A stretch of DNA of 64,000 bases from Candidatus Wildermuthbacteria bacterium. GTDB taxonomy: Bacteria; Patescibacteriota; Minisyncoccia; Minisyncoccales; UBA10102. Below, in pieces: positions 1,511-34,265 of the stretch. Under the pieces are notes generated by a model. The model did no database searches. It was not told the DNA's origin and saw only the letters and a program-made list of their open reading frames with translations. The translations under genes were made by a program, and so were the position numbers. The first letter of the stretch is position 1, and each line of letters opens with the position of its first letter. Location of the stretch: the NCBI GenBank assembly GCA_016181405.1, contig JACOZJ010000002.1:10608-74607 (forward strand), in the 5' to 3' direction.

Positions 1511-3283
1511 TTACCTGCGGAATACATCCAAGAATACTTTGGAAGGAATATGCACTCGCCCCTTTGCGGCGAGTTCTTTTTTGCCCTTTTTCTGCCTTTC
1601 AAGCAATTTTCTTTTTCGCGTCACATCTCCTCCATACAAAGGAGCGGTTACGTCGCGGCGGCGCGCACGAATGGTTTCCCTCGCGATTACCCTGCCATCC
1701 GCCACCGCCTGAATGGCTACAACAAATTGCTGGGTCGGCAGCAACTCCTTGAGCTTTTCTACAATTTGTTTGCCCTCCCGATACGCTTTTTCTCTTGAAA
1801 CAATCTGCGTAAATGCCTCCTCTTTCTGGCCCGCGATATGGATTTCAAGCTTCACTAAGTTCGCGGGCCTCCAATCTGCGATTTGATAATCCATAGAAGC
1901 CATGCCCTGCGTGGCGCTTTTGAGTCTATCGTAAAAATCAATCACTATTTCCCGAAGGGGCGTTTCGAATATTACCGAAAGGGCATGTTCGGAGATGTTG
2001 ATGGTTTCCAGCAAATTTCCTTCCAACTGTCCCAGTAGCTGCACCACTTGCGAATAATAGGACGCTGGCGTCACAATTTCCAGCCACACCCAAGGCTCTT
2101 TTACCGACTGAATATTCTGTTCGGGCCATGCCGCCGCGGTTTTGATGGAAAGCTCCCTACCCTTGGGATCCGTGATCCTGAACTCCACCGACGGCCGCGA
2201 AATTACCAATGGCACCTGATACTCTCTCTGGAGACGCTCTGAAATTATTTCCGAGTGCAGCACGCCCAAAAATCCGCACCTGAATCCCCTACCAAGGGCT
2301 TCGTGAGATTCCGGCTCGTACTCAAACGAAGGATCGTTGAGTTTAAGTTTCGCAATCGCGTCTTCCAGCACATCAAAATCCTGGGGGTCTTGCGGATAAA
2401 AACTTACGAACACCACTGGCTTTGAAGGCGCATACCCTTCTAACGCGTCTACCGACGAGTTTTGCGCCAGCGTAATAGTGTCTCCAATACGCACCGTATC
2501 AGATTCTTTCAGGCCAGTAGCGATATATCCTATTTGCCCGGCGCGCAATTCTTCATCGGCAGCCTCTTTGGGCGTAAAATGCCCAACCTCTTTTGCCACC
2601 GCTTTTGCCCTTGCTGCTTTCAAGAACAAGGGATCGTTCGTTTTTACTACGCCTTCCACCACACGCACATATGCCACTACTCCTTTAAAAGCGTCAAAAT
2701 GCGAATCGAACACCAACGCGCGCAACGGCTTGCTTCCTTCTTCTTTTGCCGGGGGCACGCGCGCGATTACTGTTCGCAATAATTCCTCCACATTTTGTCC
2801 GGTTTTCGCGGAAATGCGCAAAATCTCGCGCTCATCAATCTTGAGCAGGTCCACAATGGATCGTACAACCTCGTCCACACGGGCAGAAGGCAGATCAATT
2901 TTGTTTACTGCCGGAATAATGGTAAGCCCCTCTTCTCTGGCAAGCTTGAGGTTAGCCAATGTTTGCGCCTGCACCCCCTTAGTTGCGTCAACCAGCAAAA
3001 TAGCGCCTTCCACCGCAGCAAGCGAACGCGAAACCTCGTAGCTGAAATCCGCGTGCCCGGGAGTATCTATGAGGTTCAAGACATATTCTCTATACTTTAG
3101 CCGTATCGGCTGAAGCTTTATGGTAATCCCCTTCTCCCGCTCCAAATCCATCTGATCCAAAAACTGCTCTTTCATTTGCCGCTTCTCTACGGCTCCGGTC
3201 AATTCCAAAAACCGGTCCGCAAGCGTCGACTTCCCATGGTCGATATGCGCGATTATCACAAAATTTCGAATATTATTTGCCAT
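1511..3283 (-). CDS. lepA: Elongation factor 4 (LepA)
   Basis: MANNIRNFVIIAHIDHGKSTLADRFL..., DTPGH, NKIDL and the LepA C-terminal domain. The ORF-track N-terminal extension to 3484 overlaps murJ, so it was trimmed to the ATG at 3283. Confidence 0.95.
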   Translation of the reverse strand: MANNIRNFVIIAHIDHGKSTLADRFLELTGAVEKRQMKEQFLDQMDLEREKGITIKLQPIRLKYREYVLNLIDTPGHADFSYEVSRSLAAVEGAILLVDATKGVQAQTLANLKLAREEGLTIIPAVNKIDLPSARVDEVVRSIVDLLKIDEREILRISAKTGQNVEELLRTVIARVPPAKEEGSKPLRALVFDSHFDAFKGVVAYVRVVEGVVKTNDPLFLKAARAKAVAKEVGHFTPKEAADEELRAGQIGYIATGLKESDTVRIGDTITLAQNSSVDALEGYAPSKPVVFVSFYPQDPQDFDVLEDAIAKLKLNDPSFEYEPESHEALGRGFRCGFLGVLHSEIISERLQREYQVPLVISRPSVEFRITDPKGRELSIKTAAAWPEQNIQSVKEPWVWLEIVTPASYYSQVVQLLGQLEGNLLETINISEHALSVIFETPLREIVIDFYDRLKSATQGMASMDYQIADWRPANLVKLEIHIAGQKEEAFTQIVSREKAYREGKQIVEKLKELLPTQQFVVAIQAVADGRVIARETIRARRRDVTAPLYGGDVTRKRKLLERQKKGKKELAAKGRVHIPSKVFLDVFRR

Positions 3284-4919
3284 AAAGTTTTGCCGTGAGT
3301 ATCTTCCAAAAATGGAGTGCTTCGCGAGAACCAAGCACAAAGGCGGCGGCAATAAAGGTGAGGGCGCCGGCGAAACCCGCAAGCAGAAATTGAGTGAGCA
3401 CACGCAGATACGTTTCCAGCGGGAATGGATTTCCGTAGAGATACAACACTCCGTAAGTGACAATCCCGGCCGTGAAAGCGGCAAGCGCGGTTTTCGTCAA
3501 AGAAACAAAAAATTCCTTTCCGAACATATCCCGTATCCTTCGCGCCAGCAGCAAGCTAAGCAGTCCCAGCTGAAATACGCCGGCAATGACAAACGCCAGA
3601 GGCAAAGCGAGAATGCGCACGTCTTCAATCCCTCCCAGCCGCAAGAAAGAAACAAAAAACTGTGAGAAGGCATTTGAAGAAGCAAACACCTGAATGAGAA
3701 AAAGCGCCGAAACGATATTTAACGCGACCGAAGCAATACTTGCTAGAGTAGGGGTTTTCGTATCCTGAAGCGCAAAGAATGCCCGTACAAAGAGCGGGAT
3801 TACGGCATAAAAGATAATGCCAAATGCGAATATCCCCAGCACGGCCGCGGTGAGCCGTGTTTCATCCCAACCAAACCGATCTCCAGCTCCGTAAATAAGG
3901 CGCACAATTTGCGCCCGCAAGAGAAAAATTAAAACAGAAAAGGGCAAAACAAAAAACAGAACACCAGCGGCGGTTTTTGCAAAAGCCTGCCGCAATCTGC
4001 CAAATTCCTGTTGCGCTGCAAACCGCGCGAACACAGGGAAAGCAGCTAGCGCGAAAGAAACGCCAATCAATCCAGCAGGTAATTGCTGAATAGTATTGGC
4101 ATATTCAAAAATCGTAATGCTTCCCCCAGCAATAAGGGAAGCCAATGCCGTAATAACAATGGCATTTATGTAGGAGCTAGCCGCAGCAATGGTGCGGGGG
4201 AACGCGAGTACTGTTGCCTTTTTGACAGAAGCATCTTTGAAATTCCACAGCGGTTGCCACGAAAATCCTACCTTCCGCACGGCAGGCGCTTGTACAAGAA
4301 CATGCAGGAAAGCCCCTATAACAACCCCGACGGCCACTCCCCATATACCCCAGAGCGGCGCCAAGAAAATAATTCCTAAAATAATTCCGATATTATAAAG
4401 AATAGGGGCAAGAGCGTAAACGAAAAACCTCTGAAAATAATGAAGCACACCCGAAAACACCGCAGATATCCCAAATAGCAAAGGGCTTAAAAGCATGAGT
4501 CGTGTGAGGCTGGCAGTCGTTTCCAGTTGCGAAGAAGAAAACCCGGGCGCCACAAACGAGATAAGTTGGGGCGCAAACAGAAAGACAAAAACGGCGAATG
4601 CTAGGAGAAAGACAATAATAATATTTAAAAGATTACTCGCGAATTTCCACGCACCCTGCGGGCTTCGCTCCATCTGCTCAGCAAACATAGGAAGAAAAAT
4701 CGCGGAAATCCCGCCCATAATAAGAATGCCGTAGAGAAGATCCGGGATTCGAAACGCCGCAAAGTACATATCAGTAGCTTCACTCGCGCCAAATCGCCAA
4801 GAAAGCAATCCATTTCGCGCAAACCCAAGAATTCCGCTTATAAGCGAAGAAATGAAGAGAATGCCTGCCGCGGAGGCTATGGTTTTGGACTGGCTATTAA
4901 ACAGCTTGGAAACAGTCAT
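3273..4919 (-). CDS. murJ: Lipid II flippase MurJ (MviN family)
   Basis: About 14 predicted TM spans. The N-terminus MTVSKLFNSQSKTIASAAGILFISSLISGILGFARNGLLSWRFGAS is typical of MurJ. The start was trimmed to the ATG at 4919 because the extension overlaps rnpB. It overlaps the lepA start by 11 nt. Confidence 0.9.
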   Translation of the reverse strand: MTVSKLFNSQSKTIASAAGILFISSLISGILGFARNGLLSWRFGASEATDMYFAAFRIPDLLYGILIMGGISAIFLPMFAEQMERSPQGAWKFASNLLNIIIVFLLAFAVFVFLFAPQLISFVAPGFSSSQLETTASLTRLMLLSPLLFGISAVFSGVLHYFQRFFVYALAPILYNIGIILGIIFLAPLWGIWGVAVGVVIGAFLHVLVQAPAVRKVGFSWQPLWNFKDASVKKATVLAFPRTIAAASSYINAIVITALASLIAGGSITIFEYANTIQQLPAGLIGVSFALAAFPVFARFAAQQEFGRLRQAFAKTAAGVLFFVLPFSVLIFLLRAQIVRLIYGAGDRFGWDETRLTAAVLGIFAFGIIFYAVIPLFVRAFFALQDTKTPTLASIASVALNIVSALFLIQVFASSNAFSQFFVSFLRLGGIEDVRILALPLAFVIAGVFQLGLLSLLLARRIRDMFGKEFFVSLTKTALAAFTAGIVTYGVLYLYGNPFPLETYLRVLTQFLLAGFAGALTFIAAAFVLGSREALHFWKILTAKLYGK

Positions 4920-4946
4920 CTGTCTATTATACCTATATTTTGCTTC

Positions 4947-4975
4947 TTGACAAATCCAAAAAGCATTGGTAAAAT
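4947..4975 (+). promoter_or_regulatory. Sigma70-like promoter of rnpB
   Basis: TTGACA (4947-4952), a 17-nt spacer, then TAAAAT (4970-4975). The predicted TSS (about 4982) coincides with the 5' end of helix P1. Confidence 0.6.
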
Positions 4976-4981
4976 AACCCT

Positions 4982-5393
4982 GTCGGAGGAAGTTAGGCAA
5001 TCGCTCCCCGCCTCTTCGGTGGGGGGAGGAAAGTCCGAACACTCTCCGCCCGCAAGGGCGGATAAACTACTCCGGGTAACACCCGGCCGCCGCAAGGCGA
5101 GCGGTGCGAACAGAGACGAGCCCGCCAACATCTGATGAAGTTGTGGCGGGGTGAAACGGCTAAATCCGTGTAGGGTGCAAGAGTAAACCCTTCGGCAAGT
5201 CTCAGGGTAAACCCCTACAGAAAATTTATGTTTTCTGGGGCCTGTCCCGAGCTTGTCGAGGGATGAAAAGTGACTCGCTATTGTCCTGAGAGAAATCGAA
5301 GGGCTTGATCCTTCCTGGTAACAGGTTGGACAGATAGATGATTGCCTCCGCCGATGAGGCGGAACAGAATTCGGCTTATAGGCTTCCTCCGAC
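4982..5393 (+). ncRNA. rnpB: RNase P RNA, bacterial type A
   Basis: P1 is an 11-bp helix GTCGGAGGAAG(4982-4992)/CTTCCTCCGAC(5383-5393). The universal P4 strands are GGAGGAAAGTCCGAACAC and ACAGAATTCGGCTTATAGG. GGGTAAACCCC and AGATAGATGATTGCC blocks are also present. The overlapping ORFs 4916-5395(-) and 4947-5135(+) are artefacts. Confidence 0.93.
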
Positions 5394-5401
5394 ACAAAAA
5401 A

Positions 5402-5424
5402 TCCACCGTCAAGGTGGGTTTTTC
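5402..5424 (+). terminator. Intrinsic terminator of rnpB
   Basis: TCCACC-gtcaa-GGTGGG hairpin followed by TTTTT. Confidence 0.7.
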
Positions 5425-5426
5425 GT

Positions 5427-5473
5427 TAGAAAAGTCTTTGAGTTTTGGCACGGGAGTCGAGAGCCTGGTTCAC
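5427..5473. repeat. Left copy of a 47-bp perfect direct repeat (non-coding duplicate of the rnhA 3' end)
   Basis: tagaaaagtctttgagttttggcacgggagtcgagagcctggttcac is identical to 6852-6898. Confidence 0.97.
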
Positions 5474-6831
5474 TGTTTGATTCGATACAACGAAACGGAA
5501 TTCCCCCACCAAAGAACAAGCTTTCCTTTTTCGCGTACGAATACGGCGCGCTCGCCTATGTTATCAAATTTGTTCGTTTTTTCTATGCGGAACTCATTCC
5601 TGCCTAACGGCGCAAGCATCGCGGGCGATTCTTCAAGATCCTCAAAAGGACCTTGGGCAAAAAGTTTTTCCCCAAATTGCACCACAGCAATATCTCCCCA
5701 TCTCCCCCGGTAATACCCCTCAAATCTCCGAAAGTTTTCTGTTTCATCAGGCTTATTCTGCTTATCTTCCATCGCATGGCTAAACACATTATGAATAGTA
5801 AAAGCAATCTGGCTCACGAATACTTCAATACTATTGGTGAGAATAATCGTACTCACCCTGTTTACCGGGTCAATCAAAAGATGCGTAGAAAAACCTTGAA
5901 ACATCCCTTCATGCCCATAGAATGTCCTGCTGTTCTTCTGGGAAATAATAATGCCCAGGCCATAGAAACGATCTCGATTGTCTCCGGTGCGCGCCTGAAT
6001 GCGTTTCATCTCCCTCTTTGACTTTTTCCCAAGAATTCCCACACTATCTCTTTCGTCCGCGAGAAAAACAGCGAACCTCGCGAGGTCTTTAACATTTGTC
6101 GCAACACCCGCAGCTGCGGCAAACGCGTTAGTTTTAACTCGAGAAAATTTCGCCCTCTTCTTTATACCGGGAATAAAACGGCCGTATCCGGAAGCTAAAT
6201 CTCTCGTTGATTTTTGAACATCCGCCGTGCTCGCGACCATACCAAGCGGCCTAAAAATATGGTGTTCAATGTACTTAGTATACTCCATTCCGCTGACCGC
6301 CTGGATAACTTCTCCAAGAAGCGCGAAAGCAAAGTTGGAATACTTAAATTGTTCGTGAGCATCAAAGGTAAGCGTTTCTTTGGAAAGAAGCTCCTTCAGT
6401 TTTGCGGAATTAGGAAAATGGTCATCCACCCATTGATGATGCTCTCCATCTCGAAACATCCCTGAAGTATGGGAAAGCGCCTGTCGAATGGTAATATCCT
6501 TTGAGCTCCTCCTCCCGCACTTTACCTGAAACCAAGGAAGGTAGGAAATAATGGCATCATCAAGATGTAGCTTCTTTCCCTCCGCCAACTGCAATATTGC
6601 TACCGCGGTGAACATTTTTGAAATGGAAGCTACACGGTAGCTTGTTTCCGGCTTTGTCCGCACTTTCCTCTCAACGTCCGCAAAGCCGTATCCCCTCTGG
6701 AGGACGAGCTCTCCATCCAACACTACCCCAAGGGAAAGACCGGGAACATGCTCATAATTCATGCGCTGAGGTAGCCAGAAATCAAGGAAACGTGAGAGCG
6801 AAGCTATTTTTCTCTTTTGACCCTGTTTCAT
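5470..6831 (-). CDS. Beta-lactamase-fold serine hydrolase (class C / EstB-like, penicillin-binding-protein family) with an extra C-terminal domain
   Basis: It has the SxxK motif (ASISKMF), the YxN motif (FKYSNFA) and an HEG third box. The start was set to the ATG at 6831 (MKQGQKRK...) because the ORF-track extension to 6876 lies inside the repeat and rnhA. Confidence 0.85.
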   Translation of the reverse strand: MKQGQKRKIASLSRFLDFWLPQRMNYEHVPGLSLGVVLDGELVLQRGYGFADVERKVRTKPETSYRVASISKMFTAVAILQLAEGKKLHLDDAIISYLPWFQVKCGRRSSKDITIRQALSHTSGMFRDGEHHQWVDDHFPNSAKLKELLSKETLTFDAHEQFKYSNFAFALLGEVIQAVSGMEYTKYIEHHIFRPLGMVASTADVQKSTRDLASGYGRFIPGIKKRAKFSRVKTNAFAAAAGVATNVKDLARFAVFLADERDSVGILGKKSKREMKRIQARTGDNRDRFYGLGIIISQKNSRTFYGHEGMFQGFSTHLLIDPVNRVSTIILTNSIEVFVSQIAFTIHNVFSHAMEDKQNKPDETENFRRFEGYYRGRWGDIAVVQFGEKLFAQGPFEDLEESPAMLAPLGRNEFRIEKTNKFDNIGERAVFVREKGKLVLWWGNSVSLYRIKQ

Positions 6832-6850
6832 ACACAGTAAACTAAATACA

Positions 6851-7291
6851 CTAGAAAAGTCTTTGAGTTTTGGCACGGGAGTCGAGAGCCTGGTTCACGA
6901 GCCGATCGGCGGCCTTATTTTGCTCTCGGGGCACAGCTTGAAATCTTATCTCGCCAAAATCTAATTTAAGATTCCAAAGTTCAAGGAAAAATTTCTGGAT
7001 ACCCGCGTTCTCGATTTTATACTGACCGTTCATTTGTTTTACTAAAAGTTCCGAGTCTGCGAGTATGCGCACCTGCGATTTTTTTGCCTCGGCTTTCCCC
7101 GCAAGCGCTTTGAGTTTTTTGAGAGCCGTAATAGCCGCACGATATTCCGCCTCATTATTTGTAGTTTCACCAATATACTCTGAAATCTCTTTCAGAATGC
7201 TCCCCTGCTCATTTTCTATAACAGCACCAATGGCGGCAGGCCCGGGATTGCCTCTCGCTCCCCCATCAGTACGGATAATAAACGTTTTCAT
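6851..7291 (-). CDS. rnhA: Ribonuclease HI
   Basis: 146 aa. IIRTDGGARGNPGPAAIG, NNEAEYRAAITAL, ILADSELLV and NKAADRLVNQAL fit the RNase H type 1 DEDD pattern. Confidence 0.9.
   Translation of the reverse strand: MKTFIIRTDGGARGNPGPAAIGAVIENEQGSILKEISEYIGETTNNEAEYRAAITALKKLKALAGKAEAKKSQVRILADSELLVKQMNGQYKIENAGIQKFFLELWNLKLDFGEIRFQAVPREQNKAADRLVNQALDSRAKTQRLF
6852..6898. repeat. Right copy of the 47-bp direct repeat (part of the stop codon plus the last 15 codons of rnhA)
   Basis: Identical to 5427-5473. It encodes ...VNQALDSRAKTQRLF*. Confidence 0.97.
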
Positions 7292-8445
7292 TTTTTATTC
7301 TTCTGGAAGTATTCGTATAAACAGCGCTTCACGCCTTCTTCTTTTTCGATACTCGTCTGGAAACCGGATGCCTGCGGATGTCCACCGTAGGTTTCCAAAA
7401 ATTTATCGCACGCCTGCATTGCCTTTACGGTATCATAGCCTGCAGGCGCACGCACACTTCCCAAAATATCCTTTTTACTTTTCCGGTAAATAAAGGCAGG
7501 CTTGTTTGTTTCCTGCGAGATAATAGAAGATACCGAGCCCAGAAGCATATACTCAAATTTCTCGTCTCCCTCAAACACCAAAGGATCGGTTTTCTTATGA
7601 AAAATACGCATACGCACTTCATCGGTAGCTCTGTCGACTTGTTCTCTGCGAATTTTATTTTTCTCCGCGAAAGTCTCAACCATATGCTTAGCCTTCGGCA
7701 AAGAAGGACATGAGAGAAGACGAAACGCGCCGGGTTCGCGCTTTCTGGTATCACGAACATTCAGTATGGATATCATCTGTTGTACCCTACCCTCCAAGGG
7801 CGCATCTGACCCAAAAATATCAGACTCCAAAAGTGCCCGGACGCCGGGCCGCCAAGAATACGGAAGAGCATCCATACCCTCTCGGATAATTTGCACATTG
7901 TCCTGTTCCCGTGCCATCATGTCGGCTATTGTACCCAGTGCCGCAAGCTCCACCATACTTTGATAAAGCGTATCTGACATTTTTTTGCCCAAGAGCGTTT
8001 TGGCAAGCTGCAGCGACAATCCGCACGCCGCAAATTCTTTGAAAGGATACTTGTCCCCTGGCTGTTTGGGATCCACAATAATGTCTGCTTTAGGCAACTT
8101 ATCTAACACTTTATGATGATCCACCACTATGACGGAAAACCCAAGTTTTTTTGCCATAGGAATCTCCTTAAAATTTGAAATCCCCAAATCAAACGTAACG
8201 AGCACTCCGGGCGCGTACTGCTTGAGATACTCCAGCGCTTTTGTTGTTACGCCGTATCCTTCTTTCTCACGCTCCGGAAAGTAGTACGCCACCACATTCC
8301 CGCCCAAACTCTTAATCGCCTCTTGTGCAATAAGCACGGCAGTCACCCCATCCAAATCCGCGTCGCCATATAAAATAATGCGCTCTCCTTGAGCGACCGC
8401 TTTTTTAATTCTATTCGCCGCTTTTGTAAGATTTTTTATTTTCAT
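7288..8445 (-). CDS. DHH/DHHA1 phosphoesterase, short RecJ-like exonuclease
   Basis: GDADLDGVTAV, VVDHHKV and GGHPQASGF (DHHA1) motifs. At 385 aa it is shorter than canonical RecJ. Confidence 0.8.
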   Translation of the reverse strand: MKIKNLTKAANRIKKAVAQGERIILYGDADLDGVTAVLIAQEAIKSLGGNVVAYYFPEREKEGYGVTTKALEYLKQYAPGVLVTFDLGISNFKEIPMAKKLGFSVIVVDHHKVLDKLPKADIIVDPKQPGDKYPFKEFAACGLSLQLAKTLLGKKMSDTLYQSMVELAALGTIADMMAREQDNVQIIREGMDALPYSWRPGVRALLESDIFGSDAPLEGRVQQMISILNVRDTRKREPGAFRLLSCPSLPKAKHMVETFAEKNKIRREQVDRATDEVRMRIFHKKTDPLVFEGDEKFEYMLLGSVSSIISQETNKPAFIYRKSKKDILGSVRAPAGYDTVKAMQACDKFLETYGGHPQASGFQTSIEKEEGVKRCLYEYFQKNKK

Positions 8446-9551
8446 ATTTCCAGTGCCTTTAACCCGGGGAGCTCCTCGCCGGATAAGAATGCGAGCATGG
8501 CGCTGCCGCCTGTGGATACGTGGCTAAATTTATCCCGCAGGCCGTGCGTATCAAGGAATCCAACAAGATCTCCGCCGCCAACAACAGAAAACGCACCAGA
8601 CGCGATAATGGCTTTGGCTACCGCCAAAGAACCTTTTGCATATTCTTCTTCCTCGGCTTTTCCCAAAGGGCCTGTCCAAAATACTGTTTTTGCTTTGGCT
8701 ATTTTTGCCGCATATAGTTTAACAGTTTCTGGCCCGATATCCAACGCCTGCTCTTGGGAAGGAATTCCATCTGCTGGCCCAACGATTTTTTCTCTTCCTT
8801 TTGGAGCAAGATTTTTTGATTGGATTTCGTTGAATACGGGGTTGCCGACGAGTACCTCGTCGGCAAGCTGGCACATTTCTTCAAGAAAATGTGTTTTCGA
8901 CTCTATTTTTGTACCGCCAATAATAACAACGACCGGACGCGTAGGATCTTTGACAACTTTTCCAAGTGCCTCAACTTCTTTCTCCAGCAGCAAACCTGCG
9001 GCCGAAGGCAAAAACTTTGGTATGCCTACAAGTGAAGCATGCGCCCTGTGGTTCACGGAAAATGCCTCATTAATATACACCTCCCCCAAGCTCGCCAAAA
9101 GTTTCGCGAATGCAGGATCATTTTCTTCCTCGCCCTTGTAAAAACGAATATTCTCCAGGAGTACTACATCTCCCGGCTTCATCATCTCTATCTGCTTTTC
9201 TGCTTTTTCTCCAATAGGGTCTTCGATAAATGTAATTTTTTGATTCAGTAATTGCTGCAACCTTTGTGCAATTGGTTTTAAACTTTCTTCTTTTTGAATT
9301 TGAGATCTGCTTGGGATTTGTGATTTGGAGTTTGAGGTTTCCCCGATTTGAAAAATCGTGGTTGGTCTCCCCAAATGCGCGAGCAAAATTACTTTTGCGC
9401 CCCGCTCTCTGGCATACTGAATGGTTTGCATGCTCTCTTGAATGCGAAAATCATCAACAATATTTCCTTGCTCGTCGAGCGGAACATTAAAATCGCATCG
9501 CACCAATACCCGTTTGCCCTCCAATTGAAAATCCCGAAGCGATTTCATCAT
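8442..9551 (-). CDS. pgk: Phosphoglycerate kinase
   Basis: KRVLVRCDFNVPLDEQGNIVDDFRI, LAHLGRP, VSTGGSAMLAFLSGEELPGLKAL. The start has an ATGA overlap with the upstream gene. Confidence 0.93.
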   Translation of the reverse strand: MMKSLRDFQLEGKRVLVRCDFNVPLDEQGNIVDDFRIQESMQTIQYARERGAKVILLAHLGRPTTIFQIGETSNSKSQIPSRSQIQKEESLKPIAQRLQQLLNQKITFIEDPIGEKAEKQIEMMKPGDVVLLENIRFYKGEEENDPAFAKLLASLGEVYINEAFSVNHRAHASLVGIPKFLPSAAGLLLEKEVEALGKVVKDPTRPVVVIIGGTKIESKTHFLEEMCQLADEVLVGNPVFNEIQSKNLAPKGREKIVGPADGIPSQEQALDIGPETVKLYAAKIAKAKTVFWTGPLGKAEEEEYAKGSLAVAKAIIASGAFSVVGGGDLVGFLDTHGLRDKFSHVSTGGSAMLAFLSGEELPGLKALEI

Positions 9552-11227
9552 TTCTTAAAATAAATGGTTTCTCCTGGCTTCAAAACTCCCTTACTTGCCT
9601 CTTCTCCTTCCTTGAGAGAAGGGCTGGTCGTTCGCGCTTTTTGCAGAGCTTCCTGCAAAACTGCCTGCAGACCATGCGTATCTCTCTCTTCTCTCTTTCC
9701 TTCTTCCCGTTGCGGCTTTCCCTTCGAAAGATCAGAAGGCTGCCCTTTTTGTGGGCGAGAACCCGCCACCTCACTTCCTTCCTGTTTCCGCTTGAGTTTT
9801 TTTCTGCACGCTTTGCAATACACCGGTCTTTTCCCGTCGGGAGGAAATACCACTTTGGTATCTCTGCCGCAGTTTGAACATCTGGCATCGTATAAAACCT
9901 GCTGTTCTTTGGGAGCGGGCACGGGCGGGGCCGCGGTCAATCCTTCTATTCCGGTCCACTGCATTATTTGCGCTTCCACGTTCGCAACCGCAGTCGCATA
10001 GTGCTCACGCGAAAACTGAATAACTTCTTCGCGATATGATTTTTCTGGCGCAGTGGGTGGAGGAAGCGTGGTCGCGGAAAATGGCCGTGACGCAATCCCG
10101 TCGATCATCAATTTTACGTAAATGGTGTACTTCCCCAGATTCATAAAATCTATCGCTACAAACTCGGGGAAAAACTCTTTCTCAAGAAACTCTGCGTCTT
10201 CTGCGCCAACGCGAAACGATACCATAGTCCCCACGTTTCCGAACACCGCGTCTCTCACTTTCGCCTCTGTCCCAACCCCAAGCTGCGCGATGTATTGATG
10301 GCTCAAAATTAAGGAAAGGCGGTATTTCCGTGCTTCAGACAAAATATTCACGAAGCTCTCTGTGGCAAAGTGCTGAAACTCGTCGATATAAAGAAAGAAA
10401 TCCTGCCTCTGTTCCTCTGGGACATCCACGCGCGACATTGCGGCAAGCTGAAGCTTCGTGATTAGCAGGCCGCCGATAAGCCTCGAATTGTCTTCACCGA
10501 TTCGCCCCTTTGAGATATTTACAAGAAGGATTTTATTTTCGTCCATCGCTTTTCGCATATCAATGGAAGACCTCGTCTGCCCAACAATATTCCTAATCAA
10601 AGGGTTAGACGTAAGCTGCCCTACCTTGTTCTGCACGGCAGCCGTTGCTTCCACCTCATACCGCTGGGTATATCGGGCGTACTCTTGCAGCCAGAAAGTT
10701 TTTACCACGGGATCTGACACGTGCTCCACTACTTTCTGACGATATTCAACGTCAACCAGCATCCGGTTGATGCCCAAAAGCGTGGAATCGGGATATTCCA
10801 ATAGGGCAAGCACTACATTGTTCAAAATATATTCCATGCGCGCGGACCACACGTCGGGCCAGATCTTCTTAAACACCGACATTAAACCAGAAGCCACCAT
10901 ATGGCGTTTATCTGGATCTACCTGCTCCATAACGTTAAACGCGATAGGGTGAGTCATATCTGCCGGATTAAAATAGATGACGTCCTTTACGCGCTCCTCG
11001 GGAACAAAATCCAGAAGCTCCTCTACCGCTTCGCCATGCGGATCCACAAAACCGACTCCGTGGCCGTTTTGTATATCCTGCAAAGCCATATTCTTTAGCA
11101 TCTCGGTTTTGCCCATTCCTGTTTTTCCGACAGCGTAAAAATGGCGCCGACGATCGTCGAGCTTTATTCCAAACTTTCTTCTCATATTCCGAAAGTTTGT
11201 CTCCCCAAAGAAATTAATTTCTTCCAT
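9548..11227 (-). CDS. Type IV secretion coupling-protein-like (VirD4/TraD/TraG family) P-loop ATPase with a C-terminal zinc ribbon and a Lys/Glu-rich tail
   Basis: Walker A is AVGKTGMGKT and Walker B is FFLYIDEFQHF. A LILSHQYIAQL block is present. The C-terminal CSNCGRDTKVVFPPDGKRPVYCKACRKK is a CxxC-x17-CxxC motif. Confidence 0.8.
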   Translation of the reverse strand: MEEINFFGETNFRNMRRKFGIKLDDRRRHFYAVGKTGMGKTEMLKNMALQDIQNGHGVGFVDPHGEAVEELLDFVPEERVKDVIYFNPADMTHPIAFNVMEQVDPDKRHMVASGLMSVFKKIWPDVWSARMEYILNNVVLALLEYPDSTLLGINRMLVDVEYRQKVVEHVSDPVVKTFWLQEYARYTQRYEVEATAAVQNKVGQLTSNPLIRNIVGQTRSSIDMRKAMDENKILLVNISKGRIGEDNSRLIGGLLITKLQLAAMSRVDVPEEQRQDFFLYIDEFQHFATESFVNILSEARKYRLSLILSHQYIAQLGVGTEAKVRDAVFGNVGTMVSFRVGAEDAEFLEKEFFPEFVAIDFMNLGKYTIYVKLMIDGIASRPFSATTLPPPTAPEKSYREEVIQFSREHYATAVANVEAQIMQWTGIEGLTAAPPVPAPKEQQVLYDARCSNCGRDTKVVFPPDGKRPVYCKACRKKLKRKQEGSEVAGSRPQKGQPSDLSKGKPQREEGKREERDTHGLQAVLQEALQKARTTSPSLKEGEEASKGVLKPGETIYFKK

Positions 11228-11230
11228 ATA

Positions 11231-12559
11231 TTATTCAAGAGGCAACCCGCGCGGAGCTTCTCCCTTTCTTGTCTCCACACGCGGCATTGTACCCGAAGGA
11301 AAGACATCCCTGCCCGGGAAGTGAAACATTGTCGCCAGCTCCTCAATATTCAGCATGAACGTTCCCCCGCTTCTTGGCCAATAAAAGTTATCGCGCGAGC
11401 AATATAGCCGGAACAAACGCCTGCGCCTGATATATCTTTTCCGCTCGTCTAAGAAAAAAGTCCGTACCGTATACACTTTGGTGGTTTGGAGCGCTCGCAC
11501 AAAATTGAGATTTGCCGTGTTGAATTGCTGCATATACTGGAACGGAAGCACTTTGGTAATGCCCAGATACTTTTCGGCTCTCGCCAAATAAACGAAGCGG
11601 GCGGTGGTATTGAACATCTGCTTGCTGATTTTCTCTTCTATGGCAGTAACCACGTCCCGCTCTCCGGTGGTTAAACGAAGCTCGGGCGCCATAAGCCCTT
11701 GCGGCTCTTCTTTCCCTCCGGTCATCTTCCGTTCAGTATCTTCTCCGGTTGTCAGCATATGGCCCACGGCGCGAATATCTTCTGTTATAGGAATCGTAGG
11801 CTCTCCTCCCTTTCCCTCGGTTATTCGGTGCACAAGCTTATCCACCTCTGCTTTTCCGCGTTTATAAATGTCGGTTTCAGCTGGAGCGCGAGGCGTTAAA
11901 AGAAACTGAATCCACAAATGCTCCCCTTGTCCCAACTGTGACATTCCTTCCACCAAACTCCCTACCGGATCCACCCGCTGCTCCGCCTTTATATCCTCCT
12001 TTTCCTCGAAAAACCGCTTATATGTACGAAGAGGATACACATCGGACTTCTCAAGCTTAAACGTCGCTCCCCACATACGCCATTCTTTATTGGGCACGTT
12101 CCGGGGGACTAGTTTGGTATAATCTTCAACTTCTGTTAATTCGGCATCCGGAAACTGCGCGTATAGCACAGGTTCCATAATTCGCCGTGATTGTTCTGGT
12201 ATACGGATATAAAAATGCACATTGCCTTCGGTAGACACTAATTCCAAACTAAAGCCAAGCTGGTATTGTCCGTCTATCCATACTTCCCGAAAATTCGGAG
12301 GATCATGTATCTGCCACCAGCCCGCGAATACGCTTTCCATAGCTTTGATGGGTTTTTCCACGTCGGGCGGTATCTTTATCTCAAGCACAATACGCCGCAG
12401 CGTAAGCTCAAACTTGTACATGCGCCACCACTTCCAGAAATACATGGCCTGTGGCCAAAGGAAAAACGGCGCGAAAACCCACCACCAGGTTTTCACAAAC
12501 TCCCAGAGAAACTGCACAAAGGGGAAGGTAAGGCGAAAAAAAGTTTCCGTAACTTCCAT
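11231..12559 (-). CDS. Conserved-hypothetical membrane protein, partner of the T4CP-like ATPase
   Basis: The N-terminus has Trp-rich TM spans (FVKTWWWVFAPFFLWPQAMYFWKWWRMY) and is followed by a large soluble domain. The gene sits 3 nt upstream of the ATPase. ATG at 12559; an alternative TTG start lies at 12595. Confidence 0.65.
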   Translation of the reverse strand: MEVTETFFRLTFPFVQFLWEFVKTWWWVFAPFFLWPQAMYFWKWWRMYKFELTLRRIVLEIKIPPDVEKPIKAMESVFAGWWQIHDPPNFREVWIDGQYQLGFSLELVSTEGNVHFYIRIPEQSRRIMEPVLYAQFPDAELTEVEDYTKLVPRNVPNKEWRMWGATFKLEKSDVYPLRTYKRFFEEKEDIKAEQRVDPVGSLVEGMSQLGQGEHLWIQFLLTPRAPAETDIYKRGKAEVDKLVHRITEGKGGEPTIPITEDIRAVGHMLTTGEDTERKMTGGKEEPQGLMAPELRLTTGERDVVTAIEEKISKQMFNTTARFVYLARAEKYLGITKVLPFQYMQQFNTANLNFVRALQTTKVYTVRTFFLDERKRYIRRRRLFRLYCSRDNFYWPRSGGTFMLNIEELATMFHFPGRDVFPSGTMPRVETRKGEAPRGLPLE

Positions 12560-12584
12560 TCTCCTATTGTACACCAATTTTGCC

Positions 12585-13640
12585 TTACTCTCCAATACAA
12601 TAGTATCCCTCCCCCTCCCGCAAGAAACAAGTCTTATCCTGAAGATTTAAGAGAATCGTGCTTTCTTTCACCTGCCGCTGGGCAAGTGTTTTTTGCACAA
12701 TTTCTTCTTTGGTCATTGCTTTGTTGTTCTCACGCAGGATTTCCTTGATCACATCTTTTACGGTTCCAGGTTTAAACCCCCATTCTTCCAATGCGTACGT
12801 TCCCCTTCCCACCAGCACAAACCGGGAATCCTTAATCAGTTCGTTGTGAACGGTCTGAGGCAATACTACCCTTTTCCGCCAACTAGCAGATTGTTCTGCC
12901 AAAACTTCTTGCAATCGTTCTATAAGTTTTGCCACCTCCACAAAGTGAAGAGGCCTTCCCGCATCGTGAAGCACAACATAGGCTTTGTCGCGCATTCCTT
13001 TGGGATATACCTCGGGCCATTCGCGCAACCCCCATTTTCCATTATGCGTTCGAGCAACGAGTTTGGAAATTTCAAGCAAAGAGGCCAAAGTACGAGGATG
13101 CAGCTTTTCTCCCTCATGCACACCATGCACTTTTGCCAATTCTTCAAATTCAAGCGGCGCTTTCCGATCTTGCAGATAGGAGCAAATTGCTTCCAGAAGC
13201 CCGGGGCTGATTTCTGCAATCTCCTTTTTGCTTGCCCAAAAAGGATGCACGTATTCCGTTTCTTTATGCCTATGAAACTGATCTCCCAAATGCAAGAGAA
13301 AAATAATATGATTTTCAATCTTCGGAGTTCCCACTTCCTGAACCAAAAGGTCCTGTCGCTTCACGTTGCCTGACTCACGAAGCGCCAAAAGAAACCGCTG
13401 AAAGATTGCATCAAGTTTCTCCTGCTCTTTTTTACGCGAAGCAGCTTCCTTCACCTCACGAAGCCCGTCTTCCACGATCTGGCGCACACGCTCGCGCGTA
13501 ATGCCGTGACTTTGTCCGATTGCCTCCAAAGTTTCAGGCTCCTGCTCTTGCAACCCAAATCTCCTCTGCAGGATATCTCGAGCACGAGGATGTAAATCGG
13601 AAAGAAGAGCAACGGTCAATTTTTCGTAGGGAAAAGTCAT
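12585..13640 (-). CDS. Sigma-70 region-4-like HTH protein fused to a HARE-HTH (RpoE-delta/ASXH-like) domain
   Basis: The N-terminus LSDLHPRARDILQRRFGLQEQEPETLEAIGQSHGITRERVRQIVEDGLREVK matches the sigma region 4.2 pattern. The C-terminus AYVVLHDAGRPLHFVEVAKLI...GRGTYALEEW... is HARE-HTH-like. Confidence 0.65.
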   Translation of the reverse strand: MTFPYEKLTVALLSDLHPRARDILQRRFGLQEQEPETLEAIGQSHGITRERVRQIVEDGLREVKEAASRKKEQEKLDAIFQRFLLALRESGNVKRQDLLVQEVGTPKIENHIIFLLHLGDQFHRHKETEYVHPFWASKKEIAEISPGLLEAICSYLQDRKAPLEFEELAKVHGVHEGEKLHPRTLASLLEISKLVARTHNGKWGLREWPEVYPKGMRDKAYVVLHDAGRPLHFVEVAKLIERLQEVLAEQSASWRKRVVLPQTVHNELIKDSRFVLVGRGTYALEEWGFKPGTVKDVIKEILRENNKAMTKEEIVQKTLAQRQVKESTILLNLQDKTCFLREGEGYYCIGE

Positions 13641-29883: not shown

Positions 29884-30028
29884 ATAGCTTTTATGGTAGC
29901 TCAAAAACTCTGCTTCCGCAAGTTTGACATTTAAGCAAAGTTATGCCACTCTTTGCAGTCGCATACCCGTAGACAGACGGTCAGAGCGATCGTCTTCTGA
30001 GCGAGTTACCAAACTCCCAAAGTCAAAA

Positions 30029-30068
30029 CCCCCACCGGTCGTATGACCGCGCCGGGGGATTTTCTTTT
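30029..30068. terminator. GC-rich hairpin terminator, copy A (usable on both strands)
   Basis: CCCCCACCGGTCGTATGACCGCGCCGGGGG followed by ATTTTCTTTT. On the minus strand TTTTG follows the hairpin after the stop of 30078-30539. It is 29/30 identical to 31355-31384. Confidence 0.65.
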
Positions 30069-30077
30069 AGTTTAAAA

Positions 30078-30539
30078 TTATGCCTGTCCAACTTTAATTT
30101 TACCTCCTGGGACACAAATGCTAATTTCCATTCCATAAGCCACTCCGGGAATTTTTACGCTTAAAAGTTCTACTGTATCATCGGCATGCGACTTTACGTC
30201 TGACGGACATGGGTAGTAAATATACCCTTCGTACTCCTTCCTCTCATAGTCGATCAATGTTTTTACGAACCAGAATGTCTCTGTAAGTTCTTCAAACCAC
30301 GTGCAAGTCACCCGATAATCTGGTTCAACTATCTTAAATGTGAACGGAGATATATCTACATTAATAGTACCACTATACATTTCGGAAATGCCCTCTACTC
30401 CCGCTTTCTCAAAGAATGGTTTTTGCAGAGCAATCGTATTGTTGAGTTTCATTCCGAGCTTAACTGGCGGATTTGGGTTCAAACCAGACGCTATTCTTAA
30501 CCCCTGTTTTATTTTCCCTTTTACCATTACTTCTTTCAT
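30078..30539 (-). CDS. Hypothetical protein (weak resemblance to the DUF120/CTP-dependent riboflavin-kinase beta-barrel)
   Basis: 153 aa. GKIKQGLRIASG...SGTINVDI...YYPCPSDVKSHADDTVELLS recalls G.V.SG.G...GTLN...H..EII. The family call is low confidence. Confidence 0.55.
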   Translation of the reverse strand: MKEVMVKGKIKQGLRIASGLNPNPPVKLGMKLNNTIALQKPFFEKAGVEGISEMYSGTINVDISPFTFKIVEPDYRVTCTWFEELTETFWFVKTLIDYERKEYEGYIYYPCPSDVKSHADDTVELLSVKIPGVAYGMEISICVPGGKIKVGQA

Positions 30540-30575: not shown

Positions 30576-30604
30576 TTGACAAGCTATAAAAATTGTGCTA
30601 CTAT
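30576..30604 (+). promoter_or_regulatory. Sigma70-like promoter of the GC-rich HAD cassette
   Basis: TTGACA (30576-81), a 17-nt spacer, then TACTAT (30599-604). A GGAAGGAGAG SD precedes the ATG at 30641. Confidence 0.55.
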
Positions 30605-30640
30605 TCCCCCAGTATCACCGCTCATAGGAAGGAGAGCGCG

Positions 30641-31345
30641 ATGGCGATCAAAGGGGTTGCCTTCGACCTGGAAGACACGGTTATTCATGTTGGTAACGTG
30701 CACTTTGAAGCATTCGCCCGTGCGGCGGAAGAGATCGGCGTCATATTCGACCGGAACAATCTGGCCGCAGACATCGCCCGCCAAATTGAGAATGCCATTG
30801 GAGGCGGAGACGCACTCATTGCCGAAGGCATCTCGCAATTATCGGGTAGGAGTGCTGCCGGAGCAGAGATTCGGCGCCGCAAGGTGAGGTTTTACGACGA
30901 GATCATAGAAGGCTTCGTTTCGATCGAACCTCGCCCTGGATTTTTGGACGTTCTGGAGCAAATTCGCACCCGGGGATTTCCAATAGCGATTGCATCGATG
31001 ACTCCGAGGAGGCAGGCGGAAATCCTGCTCGAGCGGTCGGGTATTGCCAAGATTTTCCCGGGAAACCTCATTCTTCTCGAGGATTCTGTGAAGCACCTCA
31101 AGCCGGCGCCTGATGTGTATCTTGAGGCGGCACGACGGATGGGGATTCCCCCGTCCAAACAGCTTGTCTTCGAAGATTCGGCCACCGGCATCAAGGCGGC
31201 TCGCGCTGCTGGATCGCCGGTAATCGCAATGCCCGGCTACACCTTCTCGGAGAATCTAACGAAACTCCGGGAAGCGGGTGCCACCAAGATCTTCTATGGT
31301 TGGGAGGAAGTGGACATCGCCGCTCTCCTCCAAGAGTTCGACTAA
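30641..31345 (+). CDS. HAD-IA family phosphatase (beta-phosphoglucomutase-like), GC-richer cassette
   Basis: Motif I is VAFDLEDTV (D-x-E variant). IASMT and FEDSATGIKAARAAG are present. The ORF-track start at 30593 lies upstream of the predicted -10 element. Confidence 0.8.
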   Translation: MAIKGVAFDLEDTVIHVGNVHFEAFARAAEEIGVIFDRNNLAADIARQIENAIGGGDALIAEGISQLSGRSAAGAEIRRRKVRFYDEIIEGFVSIEPRPGFLDVLEQIRTRGFPIAIASMTPRRQAEILLERSGIAKIFPGNLILLEDSVKHLKPAPDVYLEAARRMGIPPSKQLVFEDSATGIKAARAAGSPVIAMPGYTFSENLTKLREAGATKIFYGWEEVDIAALLQEFD

Positions 31346-31354
31346 ACCACCAAG

Positions 31355-31399
31355 CCCCCGCCGGTCGTATGACCGCGCCGGGGGCTTCTTTCTTTTTTT
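31355..31399 (+). terminator. GC-rich hairpin terminator, copy B
   Basis: CCCCCGCCGGTCGTATGACCGCGCCGGGGG followed by CTTCTTTCTTTTTTT. Confidence 0.7.
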
Positions 31400-31500
31400 A
31401 GGAGAGATTTTTTATCCAGTCCCCAATAGCCTCTTAGGAACTTTGCTCTTGAGAGGCTTATTTATTGATTTAGGAGAATGAATTTATTACAGTGGAAAGT

Positions 31501-33494: not shown

Positions 33495-34265
33495 ATGGTA
33501 GAGAAAGTCCGAGTGGACAATATCGCCAGCGTGGGGATCATCTACAGGAGGTTCCACCCAGACCAGATCTTGATTGACATCAAGGATGGAGGGTATCCGC
33601 TCAAGGCATTCAGGTGGATGCTCTGCCCCATCGGAGGAAACTGGATCGGGCCTACAGCCCGCAACGACCAGAACACCCGAGATACCTTGATCCGCGAGAT
33701 GAGCGAGGAACTCTCTCTCGATTCGAGGGAAACCTCCACGGAAGACGCAGCGCTGCTGGGCCTCGAGCCCGAGCAAGCGACATACGTGGTTCCCAAGAAG
33801 GGCGTTGCGTCGACCGACGAAGATCGCGAGAAGCTCGGGCGCCTCAAGGGGGCCTTCGCAAACACTGCAGAGCCCTTCGGTGATTTCCTAGTCAACGTAC
33901 CGAAGTCGGTGCTCGACCGGGGAGTCCCCGACAACACCCGGCCAGGTTACACTTCCATCCTTTCCTACTGGCGCGTGCCAGTGGACGAAGAGGATTGGGC
34001 GACTCTCGTCGATATGCATGCAAAGTACGGCAACCTCTCTGTCGAGAGTATAGCCGTAATCATCTCGCTCGAAGAAATCGTGACCACGCGCAGGCACACC
34101 TGCTGCGGCCACGATCGGATCCTGCAACAATGGTTTGCGAGCATGGGGTGCGTCGAAACGATGCATCTCCCCCTGCTCCCTGATATCTTCTGCGCCTACC
34201 TCCATCAACCGCTCGCGAGCTACGAAGAGTACCTCGAGCGGTACGAGGTAGTCAGGCACCCCTAG
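33495..34265 (+). CDS. Divergent Nudix-fold protein with a C-terminal extension (GC-rich island)
   Basis: GGNWIGPTARNDQNTRDTLIREMSEELSL aligns to the Nudix box (REMSEEL = REUxEEx), but the upstream Glu and the Gly are replaced. About 120 aa of unassigned C-terminal domain follow. Confidence 0.6.
   Translation: MVEKVRVDNIASVGIIYRRFHPDQILIDIKDGGYPLKAFRWMLCPIGGNWIGPTARNDQNTRDTLIREMSEELSLDSRETSTEDAALLGLEPEQATYVVPKKGVASTDEDREKLGRLKGAFANTAEPFGDFLVNVPKSVLDRGVPDNTRPGYTSILSYWRVPVDEEDWATLVDMHAKYGNLSVESIAVIISLEEIVTTRRHTCCGHDRILQQWFASMGCVETMHLPLLPDIFCAYLHQPLASYEEYLERYEVVRHP

Follow-up and report, generated by a model that had tools for sequence, protein, structure and literature searches.

Genomic islands and prophages that depend on a tyrosine integrase occupy the 3' ends of tRNA, tmRNA, and protein-coding genes; they carry their own integrase by the att site and are much larger than the unit described below. 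The insertion of an integron cassette, for its part, does not duplicate 47 bp of the target. CIMEs are remnants of larger elements whose integrase-bearing kin use the same att site (PMC5704250). The microcin H47 island is a small (13 kb) island with extensive imperfect direct repeats that are widespread among strains; it encodes no recombinase, is excised and integrated by host functions in a RecA-independent manner, and has been shown experimentally to be mobile (PMC3191183; PMC5426353).

The closest known kind of event to the one considered here is the "insertion with long target duplication" of the Kobayashi laboratory (Nobusato et al., 2000, cited as reference 37 of Furuta, Abe & Kobayashi, NAR 2010; PMC2853133). 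In the published cases, repeats of more than 30 bp, including some of 45–47 bp and longer, duplicate the target, and an empty site is present in a related genome (PMC2853133). The inserts lack a transposase or integrase, the repeat is unique in the genome, and single-gene inserts such as mcrA are on record; some repeats extend into the 3' end of a neighboring gene, such as 15 bp of HI0105 (PMC2853133). The hosts are mostly naturally competent, and the survey, which sought restriction-modification (RM) genes, led its authors to link the process to RM-induced DNA breakage (PMC2853133).

The CPR/Patescibacteria have tiny genomes, few recognizable mobile elements, and no genetic system, and little is therefore known about how these organisms gain accessory genes. 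In the current study, we describe a locus of an uncultivated groundwater bacterium, Candidatus Wildermuthbacteria (CPR), that is a lineage-specific and probably recent insertion with target duplication, as judged from its sequence and that of its relatives. The locus provides an unusually clean before-and-after snapshot, combining an empty site at approximately 94% identity, perfect repeats, one gene, and an essential target that has been preserved.

A perfect repeat at the end of rnhA

The DNA analyzed (hereafter the window) is a 64-kb stretch of a 239.5-kb contig. It holds exactly two copies of the 47-mer TAGAAAAGTCTTTGAGTTTTGGCACGGGAGTCGAGAGCCTGGTTCAC (R), at 5427–5473 and 6852–6898, which are 100% identical (47/47 nt) and spaced by 1425 nt from start to start. 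No further copies were found in the window with up to three mismatches allowed, R was matched in none of 100 shuffles, and no other perfect repeat of the window reaches 24 nt; dispersal of the 47-mer over other loci, which the earlier note had named as a sign of a repeat family, is thus not seen within these 64 kb. R contains no hairpin or palindrome and folds weakly (−4.1 and −7.5 kcal/mol).

The right copy of R (6852..6898, minus strand) comprises the last 15 codons of rnhA, which encode ...VNQALDSRAKTQRLF, and the TA of its stop codon, completed to TAG by the G that is the first base of the insert. The rnhA gene (6851..7291, minus strand; RNase HI, 146 aa, Pfam RVT_3/RNase_H) is intact, and its start overlaps the stop of the recJ-like DHH/DHHA1 gene (7288..8445, minus strand) that forms the upstream flank and served to retrieve syntenic loci. 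The left copy (5427..5473, minus strand) is non-coding and carries the stop codon of the neighboring hydrolase gene (TGA, 5470–5472). On the minus strand, the base that follows the left copy is an A, giving a full TAA stop, after which comes a hairpin at 5403–5417; TAA and hairpin follow rnhA in this same order in relatives with an empty site. The hairpin lies between A- and T-runs in a bidirectional intrinsic terminator (5398..5425) and was called on the minus strand by a terminator scan, indicating that the terminator is common to rnpB and the recJ-rnhA(-hydrolase) operon. Convergent with the operon is rnpB (4985..5394, plus strand; class A RNase P RNA, Rfam RF00010, 117 bits), the downstream flank, and murJ (3273..4922, minus strand) was used as the downstream syntenic anchor. 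The genes around the insert (rnhA, recJ, pgk, rnpB, murJ, and lepA) include none for mobility.

The inserted unit and its cargo

The segment between the repeats (5474..6851, minus strand) is 1378 nt long and consists of a 20-nt leader (6832–6851) and the hydrolase ORF as far as the last sense codon, so that with one R the inserted unit measures 1425 nt. The insert is ORF-tight, with 20 nt upstream and 0 nt downstream of the ORF. Its single gene (5470..6831, minus strand; ATG 6831) encodes a 453-aa serine hydrolase of the S12/beta-lactamase fold (PF00144, E = 4.5e-63) that keeps the SxxK (S69/K72), YxN (Y164/N166), and HxG (H307/G309) motifs and has Flp (4gdn), Pab87 (2qmi), and LACTB as its best solved relatives. 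The protein ends where homologous proteins end, and the right junction therefore coincides with GTGA, a motif common to the hydrolase stop and the target. The anatomy given in the earlier note, in which a perfect repeat reproduces the last 15 codons and part of the stop of rnhA and encloses a single hydrolase gene that ends within the left copy, is confirmed by these results.

The nearest homolog of the hydrolase is only 58% identical, with none above this value among 5.8 billion protein clusters, and the homologs at this identity (L005–L008) lie in unrelated gene contexts without comparable flanking repeats. Two repeats close to homologs were set aside: a 17-nt repeat in L008 is a promoter-like TGGTATAAT motif, and a 93-nt repeat in L005, which encloses three genes, is unrelated. 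The composition and codon usage of the hydrolase gene are typical of the host genome (rank 20/51) and hence can neither date nor source it.

The earlier note had seen no integrase, transposase, or terminal inverted repeat, and this view held on closer inspection. Terminal inverted repeats are lacking: the insert scored 6, and shuffled sequences averaged 6.8. No attC-like imperfect palindrome, GTTRRRY/RYYYAAC core sites, or Xer/dif-like features were found at the insert. Neither the insert nor the approximately 40 ORFs of the window, which is the part of the contig covered by the recombinase search on the host side, encodes an integrase or transposase. Neither R nor the hydrolase was matched in viral contigs, and a phage origin of the insert was rejected on these grounds; one family member of the hydrolase occurs among them, at 35% identity.

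Empty sites in related genomes

In at least seven related lineages of Wildermuthbacteria (L015, L010/L016, L011/L024/L026, L023, L027, L009, and L013/L021), the gene order is recJ-rnhA-terminator-rnpB-murJ with a single 47-mer and without the hydrolase, and these empty sites read one copy of R, TAA, terminator, and rnpB. In the closest relative, L015 (approximately 94% nucleotide identity), BLASTN aligned window positions 8004..6852 with L015 3036–4188 and window positions 5473..5303 with L015 4142–4299; both alignments stop at the repeat edges, and they overlap on L015 4142–4188, which is the single R. Three of the 47 positions of this R are different in the window copies, which match each other fully, indicating that the duplication postdates the split from L015; across the relatives, R differs from that of the window at 3–5 of 47 positions. 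The hydrolase is absent from the rnhA locus in all 86 related loci. The proposal made from the window, that a single-gene unit entered the rnhA 3' end and duplicated its target, is thus supported by one-copy sites, and no relative carries the hydrolase here without a duplication. A precise loss between the R copies would restore the ancestral order of rnhA, TAA, and terminator; an allele of this kind was not seen.

Along the region, identity to L015 and L016 forms a mosaic, showing that homologous exchange is active here. A recombination tract ending at the insertion was rejected, since identity to L015 is 93.5% and 93.9% on the two sides; the breakpoint in L015 identity falls within recJ, approximately 1.1 kb upstream, with no apparent relation to the insertion.

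Downstream of rnhA, gene content varies: depending on the relative, there are toxin-type genes (Fic, PIN, zeta toxin), a reverse transcriptase, or metabolic genes. In 94 related loci, no recombinase was found downstream of rnhA except for Xer-like genes in two distant loci, and no relative has an integrase-bearing element at the rnhA-end site. One locus (L019) presents a second, older case of duplication, in which Fic-domain and PIN-domain genes, without a recombinase, are bracketed by a copy of the rnhA end that spans 103 nt at 81% identity. The rnhA stop codon is where this duplication ends, as in the window. The unequal lengths of the two duplications (47 nt in the window versus 103 nt in L019) speak against a fixed att site. 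Among 20 loci that have cargo after rnhA, a sensitive search recovered an rnhA-end duplicate only in L019; a candidate in L014, a locus with 3.7 kb of additional genes, amounted to just a 15/18-nt match and was judged to be due to chance. The distal copy in L019 was also compared with other lineages for the sign of a donor/recipient hybrid, and its best match is the rnhA end of L019 itself, a result that is uninformative as to its source.

Assembly evidence

Repeats of this kind break short-k assemblies and can pass for mis-assemblies. Logan contigs (k=31) from four runs match the window at 100% identity and necessarily break at the 47-nt R: three of them (L002–L004) end at base 30 of R, and the fourth (L001, from run SRR12113420) loops from R through the gene to bases 1–30 of R, that is, one turn of the unit plus k−1 bases (1425+30 nt). 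These contig ends and the loop place the junctions from rnhA to R, from the hydrolase to R, and from R to the hydrolase in independent assemblies, so the repeat junctions, for which an artefact had been considered in the earlier note, are reproduced by an independent assembler. Exact-protein look-ups for rnhA, murJ, and lepA returned no rnpB-side contigs and no same-strain empty allele on record. The possibility that the unit is present in excess copies in SRR12113420 was considered and rejected, as the chromosome contigs of this run are equally fragmented (1.6–4.5 kb); the run is simply of low coverage, and the closed loop is no evidence for a circle.

Origin of the insertion

We put at about even chances a one-off insertion, with long target duplication, of a single accessory gene at the 3' end of rnhA. 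In such an event, a 1378-nt DNA (the 20-nt leader and the complete S12 hydrolase ORF) would have been joined at the extreme 3' end of rnhA, and in the same step the target would have had its final 47 nt duplicated, a stretch from codon 132 through the second base of the stop codon; because the duplication reaches the stop codon, rnhA would have been kept intact, now ending in TAG. The hydrolase would thereby have become the last cistron of the pgk-recJ-rnhA operon, probably co-transcribed with rnhA, taking its stop codon from the distal R and leaving the ancestral bidirectional terminator in place. We infer a one-off recombination or repair accident rather than the movement of a self-mobile element. 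The DNA may have been joined at short microhomologies, for which GTGA at the hydrolase stop and TA at the rnhA stop are candidates, after a staggered break or during replication template switching; another possible route is homology-facilitated illegitimate recombination after DNA uptake. The microhomologies are proposed only, the nearest homolog being as distant as 58% identity.

That the chromosome is empty, and that a separate molecule or another genome with R and the hydrolase was threaded in via the shared 47-mer, is very unlikely. At k=31, the de Bruijn graph is the same for the integrated form and for an empty chromosome plus a circle, and among the retrieved contigs only the MAG contig links rnhA-R-hydrolase or hydrolase-R-terminator across the full repeat. 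However, the hydrolase-to-R and rnhA-to-R junctions co-occur in the runs of the strain, with a branch at R in three and the loop in the fourth, and the composition of the hydrolase gene is that of the genome; a 1.4-kb replicon without a replication gene is implausible, as is another genome that has exactly 47 nt of the strain's rnhA in common with it. Assemblers in current use finish at k ≥ 55 and so span a 47-nt repeat, though the one used for this MAG may differ. It is extremely improbable that the hydrolase is ancestral at the locus and was lost in the relatives by recombination between the repeats. Deletion between the R copies would indeed yield the exact empty-site sequence, but independent precise losses would be needed in at least seven lineages with 75–99% rnhA identity, including clades with an inverted rnpB, whereas none of the 86 related loci retains the gene, no ortholog exceeds 58% identity among the protein clusters searched, and the window repeats still agree at 47/47 while orthologous copies of R differ at 3–5 positions.

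The remaining alternative, an att-flanked, integrase-less cassette mobilized in trans in a CIME-like or MccH47-island-like manner, is a serious one that we nonetheless hold to be unlikely. Under this reading, a 1425-nt circle (R, 20 nt, and the hydrolase) recombined with the identical 47-nt rnhA end, the catalyst being RecA, in a Campbell-type single crossover, or a site-specific recombinase with its gene elsewhere; the element-borne R would have replaced the gene end, and the unit could re-excise through the repeats. The perfect direct repeats at the 3' end of a conserved gene, with ORF and stop restored, speak for such a cassette, as does the compact, ORF-tight unit, which looks cassette-like. 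So does the fact that the duplications in both the window and L019 stop at the rnhA stop codon, the outcome of an att-type replacement of the 3' end, for which a random break would need selection as an explanation. Moreover, 47 bp exceeds the minimal length for RecA-dependent exchange, and the L001 contig, at exactly one turn of the unit plus k−1 bases, is compatible with a circle, although the chromosome in SRR12113420 is as fragmented as the loop and there is no sign of excess copies. Att-flanked integrase-less islands and CIMEs are also documented (PMC5704250; PMC3191183). Against the cassette stand the lack of a recombinase in the insert and the window ORFs, with only the two distant Xer-like genes in the 94 rnhA loci; the lack of any relative with an integrase-bearing element at the rnhA end; the unequal duplication lengths; viral contigs devoid of R and the hydrolase; and hydrolase homologs whose contexts are unrelated and free of comparable flanking repeats. 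In addition, R is identical to the strain's own rnhA, from which the relatives differ at 3–5 of 47 positions, as befits a copy of the local target rather than an imported surrogate. A bolder form of the same idea, that R and the hydrolase form a live, integrase-less gene circle of 1425 nt that attaches at the final 47 nt of rnhA and owes its movement to a host recombinase or RecA in competent CPR bacteria, with the Fic/PIN unit of L019 as a second, older member, strikes us as quite improbable; if true, it would constitute a minimal single-gene cassette system aimed at the end of a housekeeping gene. On balance, a one-off event of break repair or illegitimate recombination seems to us more likely than an att-type cassette.

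Comparison with known systems

The locus does not represent a new class of element. It departs from DNA transposons, IS elements, and MITEs, which have duplications of 2–14 bp, terminal inverted repeats, and a transposase, in its 47-bp duplication, its inverted-repeat score of 6 versus 6.8, and its lack of a transposase. Like an integron cassette, it is a promoterless, ORF-tight unit of approximately 1.4 kb with a very short leader, and its recombination site would overlap the stop; unlike one, it is accompanied by no attC-like palindrome, core sites, intI, or attI in the window. As in tyrosine-integrase islands and prophages, the target's 3' end makes up the repeat and the gene is restored, but the insert contains no integrase. 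The resemblance to CIMEs lies in direct repeats at the 3' end of a conserved protein gene that include the gene end, and in the lack of integration and transfer genes. In contrast to CIMEs, the window insert is a bare ORF, and an integrase-bearing element at rnhA is found in 0 of 94 related loci; for integrase-mediated islands and CIMEs alike, the repeat at the gene end is present and the recombinase is missing from the insert, the approximately 40 window ORFs, and the 94 loci. The microcin H47 island is similar in its flanking direct repeats and lack of an encoded recombinase, whereas the window unit is 1.4 kb in size, has a local gene end as its repeat, and is known from sequence alone.

The best correspondence is with insertion with long target duplication: the empty site (L015 and others) aligns on both sides with one repeat copy, the repeats exceed 30 bp (47/47 nt), and the insert is below 20 kb (1378 nt) and free of mobility genes. 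The published repeats are unique in the genome; for R, the count of two copies applies to the 64-kb window. The differences lie in the cargo, which is RM in the published cases and here an S12 hydrolase or, in L019, Fic-domain and PIN-domain genes; in the CPR host; and in the duplication of 45 nt of coding sequence with the target gene preserved. The locus thus extends this kind of insertion beyond RM cargo and beyond cultivated, classically competent bacteria, and non-RM cargo in a CPR host weakens the need to invoke RM-inflicted breaks in such insertions.

The Duplicated rnhA End and Its Single Gene

The window contains two copies of the 47-nt direct repeat R, R-left at 5427-5473 and R-right at 6852-6898. 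They are 100% identical and lie 1425 nt apart; no third copy is present in the window at up to three mismatches (0 of 100 shuffles gave any match), and no other perfect repeat in the 64 kb reaches 24 nt. All protein genes at the rnhA locus lie on the minus strand, in the order pgk (8442-9551), a recJ-like DHH/DHHA1 gene (7288-8445) and rnhA (6851-7291), with overlapping start and stop codons, and R-right spans the final 15 codons of rnhA and the first two bases (TA) of the stop codon. The hydrolase gene (453 aa; PF00144, E = 4.5e-63) begins 20 nt past R-right with an ATG at 6831 and ends with a TGA (5470-5472) that is bases 2-4 of R-left. The base after R-left is an A, giving TAA in the rnhA frame, and is followed by a hairpin (5403-5417; a minus-strand terminator by scan) with A- and T-runs on both sides; just beyond lies the 3′ end of rnpB (4985-5394; Rfam, 117 bits), which is convergent with the rnhA operon genes, and past rnpB come murJ and then lepA. 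There is no GC step across the insert.

The coordinates in the earlier note were all correct, and its observation that no integrase, transposase or terminal inverted repeat is visible holds for the roughly 40 window ORFs and the insert ends, respectively. R contains no significant hairpin, and no viral match was obtained for R or for the hydrolase. In a motif screen of all ORFs at all loci, tyrosine recombinases appeared only in two distant relatives and were Xer-like in look. In the conserved operon upstream of pgk, 9548-12595 encodes a TrwB/VirD4-like ATPase with a zinc-finger domain and then a DUF8128 protein; the pair is coupling-protein-like, and the surroundings contain no further transfer genes.

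Empty Sites in Related Genomes

Related loci (n = 86) were collected by scanning GTDB genomes with RecJ and JGI metagenomes with RNase HI. None encodes the hydrolase and none carries a second copy of R; that the hydrolase is ancestral and was repeatedly lost is very unlikely. The empty site envisaged in the earlier note, a hydrolase-free recJ-rnhA-rnpB-murJ order, was found in L015, L010/L016, L011/L024/L026, L023, L027, L009 and L013/L021. One R-like copy each is present in L015, the closest of these relatives (rnhA 99% identical to the window in amino acids), and in L010/L016 (95-96%), and R was undetected in the remaining empty-site loci. In L010, the rnhA stop is TAA with the terminator and rnpB directly after, exactly as at R-left. 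rnpB is inverted in L009 (7638-8052), L013 (7629-8059) and L021; in this clade it is co-directional with rnhA, its promoter directly following the rnhA stop, whereas in the window clade it is convergent and its terminator is common with rnhA.

When the window was aligned to L015 by BLASTN (about 93.5-94% identity), 8004..6852 matched L015 3036-4188 and 5473..5303 matched L015 4142-4299, so that both alignments overlap on the one R copy of L015. Judged from these alignments, this overlap is the classic signature of insertion with target duplication; the finding is real, and the interpretation proposed earlier, a single-gene insertion at the rnhA 3′ end with target duplication, is supported. One gene was gained and 47 nt of target were duplicated. 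At three of its 47 positions the R copy of L015 departs from the window sequence, and these are the same three for either window copy; the window copies are mutually identical where about three differences would be expected had they been as old as the L015 split, which suggests that the insertion is probably younger than that split.

The Hydrolase Cargo

The SxxK, YxN and HxG positions, invariant among relatives, are kept in the hydrolase, and its C-terminus lies no more than two residues from where relatives end; the insert is thus an entire ORF preceded by 20 nt, with no extra sequence after it. The GTGA at the hydrolase-R junction is common to the hydrolase stop and the target. With S. aureus Flp, Pyrococcus Pab87 and LACTB as its best solved relatives, the protein is a predicted S12 peptidase/esterase of the "CubicO" type rather than a demonstrated beta-lactamase. 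Among 5.8 billion clusters, identity to the closest homolog is only 58%, and such homologs occur in unrelated contexts. The gene is host-like (GC 0.459, GC3 0.467, codon usage rank 20 of 51), and its source was probably a compositionally similar organism. The contig of a 58%-identical homolog (L005, JGI 3300022707) has a 93-nt direct repeat (84% identical; 804-896 and 3438-3530), a repeated intergenic element, which encloses the homolog together with two further genes; the hydrolase there is followed by a weaker repeat of 44 nt.

A Variable Site After rnhA

In L019 (JGI Ga0209542_10023484; rnhA 80% identical), a duplicated rnhA end likewise encloses an insertion at 3994-9312. Here the genes for a 1354-aa Fic-domain protein and a PIN_3 protein come after rnhA, and behind them lies a 103-nt copy (81% identical) of the last ~100 nt of rnhA, again ending at the stop codon. 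This insertion contains no recombinase. Its distal copy best matches L019's own rnhA, which would fit an earlier insertion of this type. The Fic gene is also found in L018, where the downstream antitoxin/PIN pair differs. At other loci the genes after rnhA encode a zeta toxin, an alpha/beta hydrolase and a pentapeptide-repeat protein (L014), an MGMT-like DNA-binding protein and then a reverse transcriptase in the rnhA-murJ variable region (L029; 7368-8354, 328 aa, PF00078, YADD motif), a dehydrogenase (L031) or a ChrB_C-domain protein (L034); an rnhA-end duplication is undetectable in these four loci.

Within the window, a 49-nt direct repeat (30026-30074 and 31352-31400; 84% identical), a GC-rich terminator-like hairpin, surrounds 1.3 kb with a 153-aa ORF (30078-30539, minus) and a HAD hydrolase gene (30593-31345, plus; GC 0.56 versus about 0.46 for the window); this may be a further insertion with duplicated flanking sequence. 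Three ORFs in a glycan-biosynthesis cluster (33495-34265, 34408-35247 and 38005-39054), two of them without a Pfam match, have clearly higher GC (0.55-0.58), GC3 values as high as 0.75 and atypical codon usage, and are likely horizontal acquisitions.

Origin of the Insertion

NCBI lists the hydrolase among the proteins of a Candidatus Wildermuthbacteria MAG, encoded on a contig of 239.5 kb, and the window strain is present at 100% identity in independent Logan assemblies (k=31) of four sequencing runs. Three recJ-rnhA contigs (SRR12113430, SRR12113384 and SRR12113383) all break off at base 30 of R, as is typical where two paths meet on its first 31-mer, and a 1455-nt contig of SRR12113420 runs from R through the leader and hydrolase to the first 30 nt of R, equivalent to a single turn of the 1425-nt unit with k-1 bases added. 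Thus, the junctions rnhA to R, hydrolase to R and R to the hydrolase leader are all in reads. Since these contigs lack linkage across the whole 47-mer, the integrated order depends on the MAG contig; a mis-join or an episome in place of the integrated form is improbable. Chromosome contigs in SRR12113420 are themselves only 1.6-4.5 kb, and the closed loop is therefore no evidence for extra copies.

As to mechanism, we give an even chance to a one-off illegitimate event, which could have proceeded through a staggered break that was filled in, through template switching in which replication returned to a site 47 nt upstream of where it had departed, or through DNA uptake followed by one-sided homologous plus illegitimate joining. 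Such an event is favoured because recombinase and end signature are lacking, because duplication lengths differ between the window and L019, because R is the strain's own sequence rather than a diverged surrogate, because the published class of insertions with long target duplication behaves alike, and because mosaic identity shows active exchange in the region. Across 3338-11928, L016 is the closer match in the pgk/TrwB-like region (93% identity, against 85% for L015), and L015 is the closer one in the 3′ part of recJ and in rnhA (93.5%, against 85% for L016). This pattern indicates that homologous exchange has taken place among lineages of Wildermuthbacteria, with a breakpoint near 8004-8093. 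In L015 there is also about 0.9 kb of additional sequence between pgk and recJ, and residues 119-147 are missing from the recJ alignment. The main rival is that a circle of att type was integrated in trans, through a site-specific recombinase or through RecA. It is supported by the ORF-tight unit and by a duplication that stops at the stop codon in both the window and L019, and we hold it to be a doubtful but appreciable possibility.

Relation to Known Systems

The window insertion is not a new system. CIMEs (PMC5704250) and the integrase-less MccH47 island (PMC3191183) resemble its unit in having att-like repeats without a recombinase, but their size and origin are different, and for them there are either related elements with an integrase or a demonstrated ability to move. 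The nearest published class is insertion with long target duplication, in which repeats exceed 30 bp (several being 45-47 bp), some overlap gene 3′ ends, relatives carry empty sites, mobility genes are absent and hosts are mostly naturally competent (PMC2853133). That survey concerned restriction-modification genes and ascribed the process to DNA breakage by them, whereas the cargo here is not a restriction-modification system; with such cargo and a host among the Patescibacteria (CPR), the example widens an under-studied mode of gene gain.
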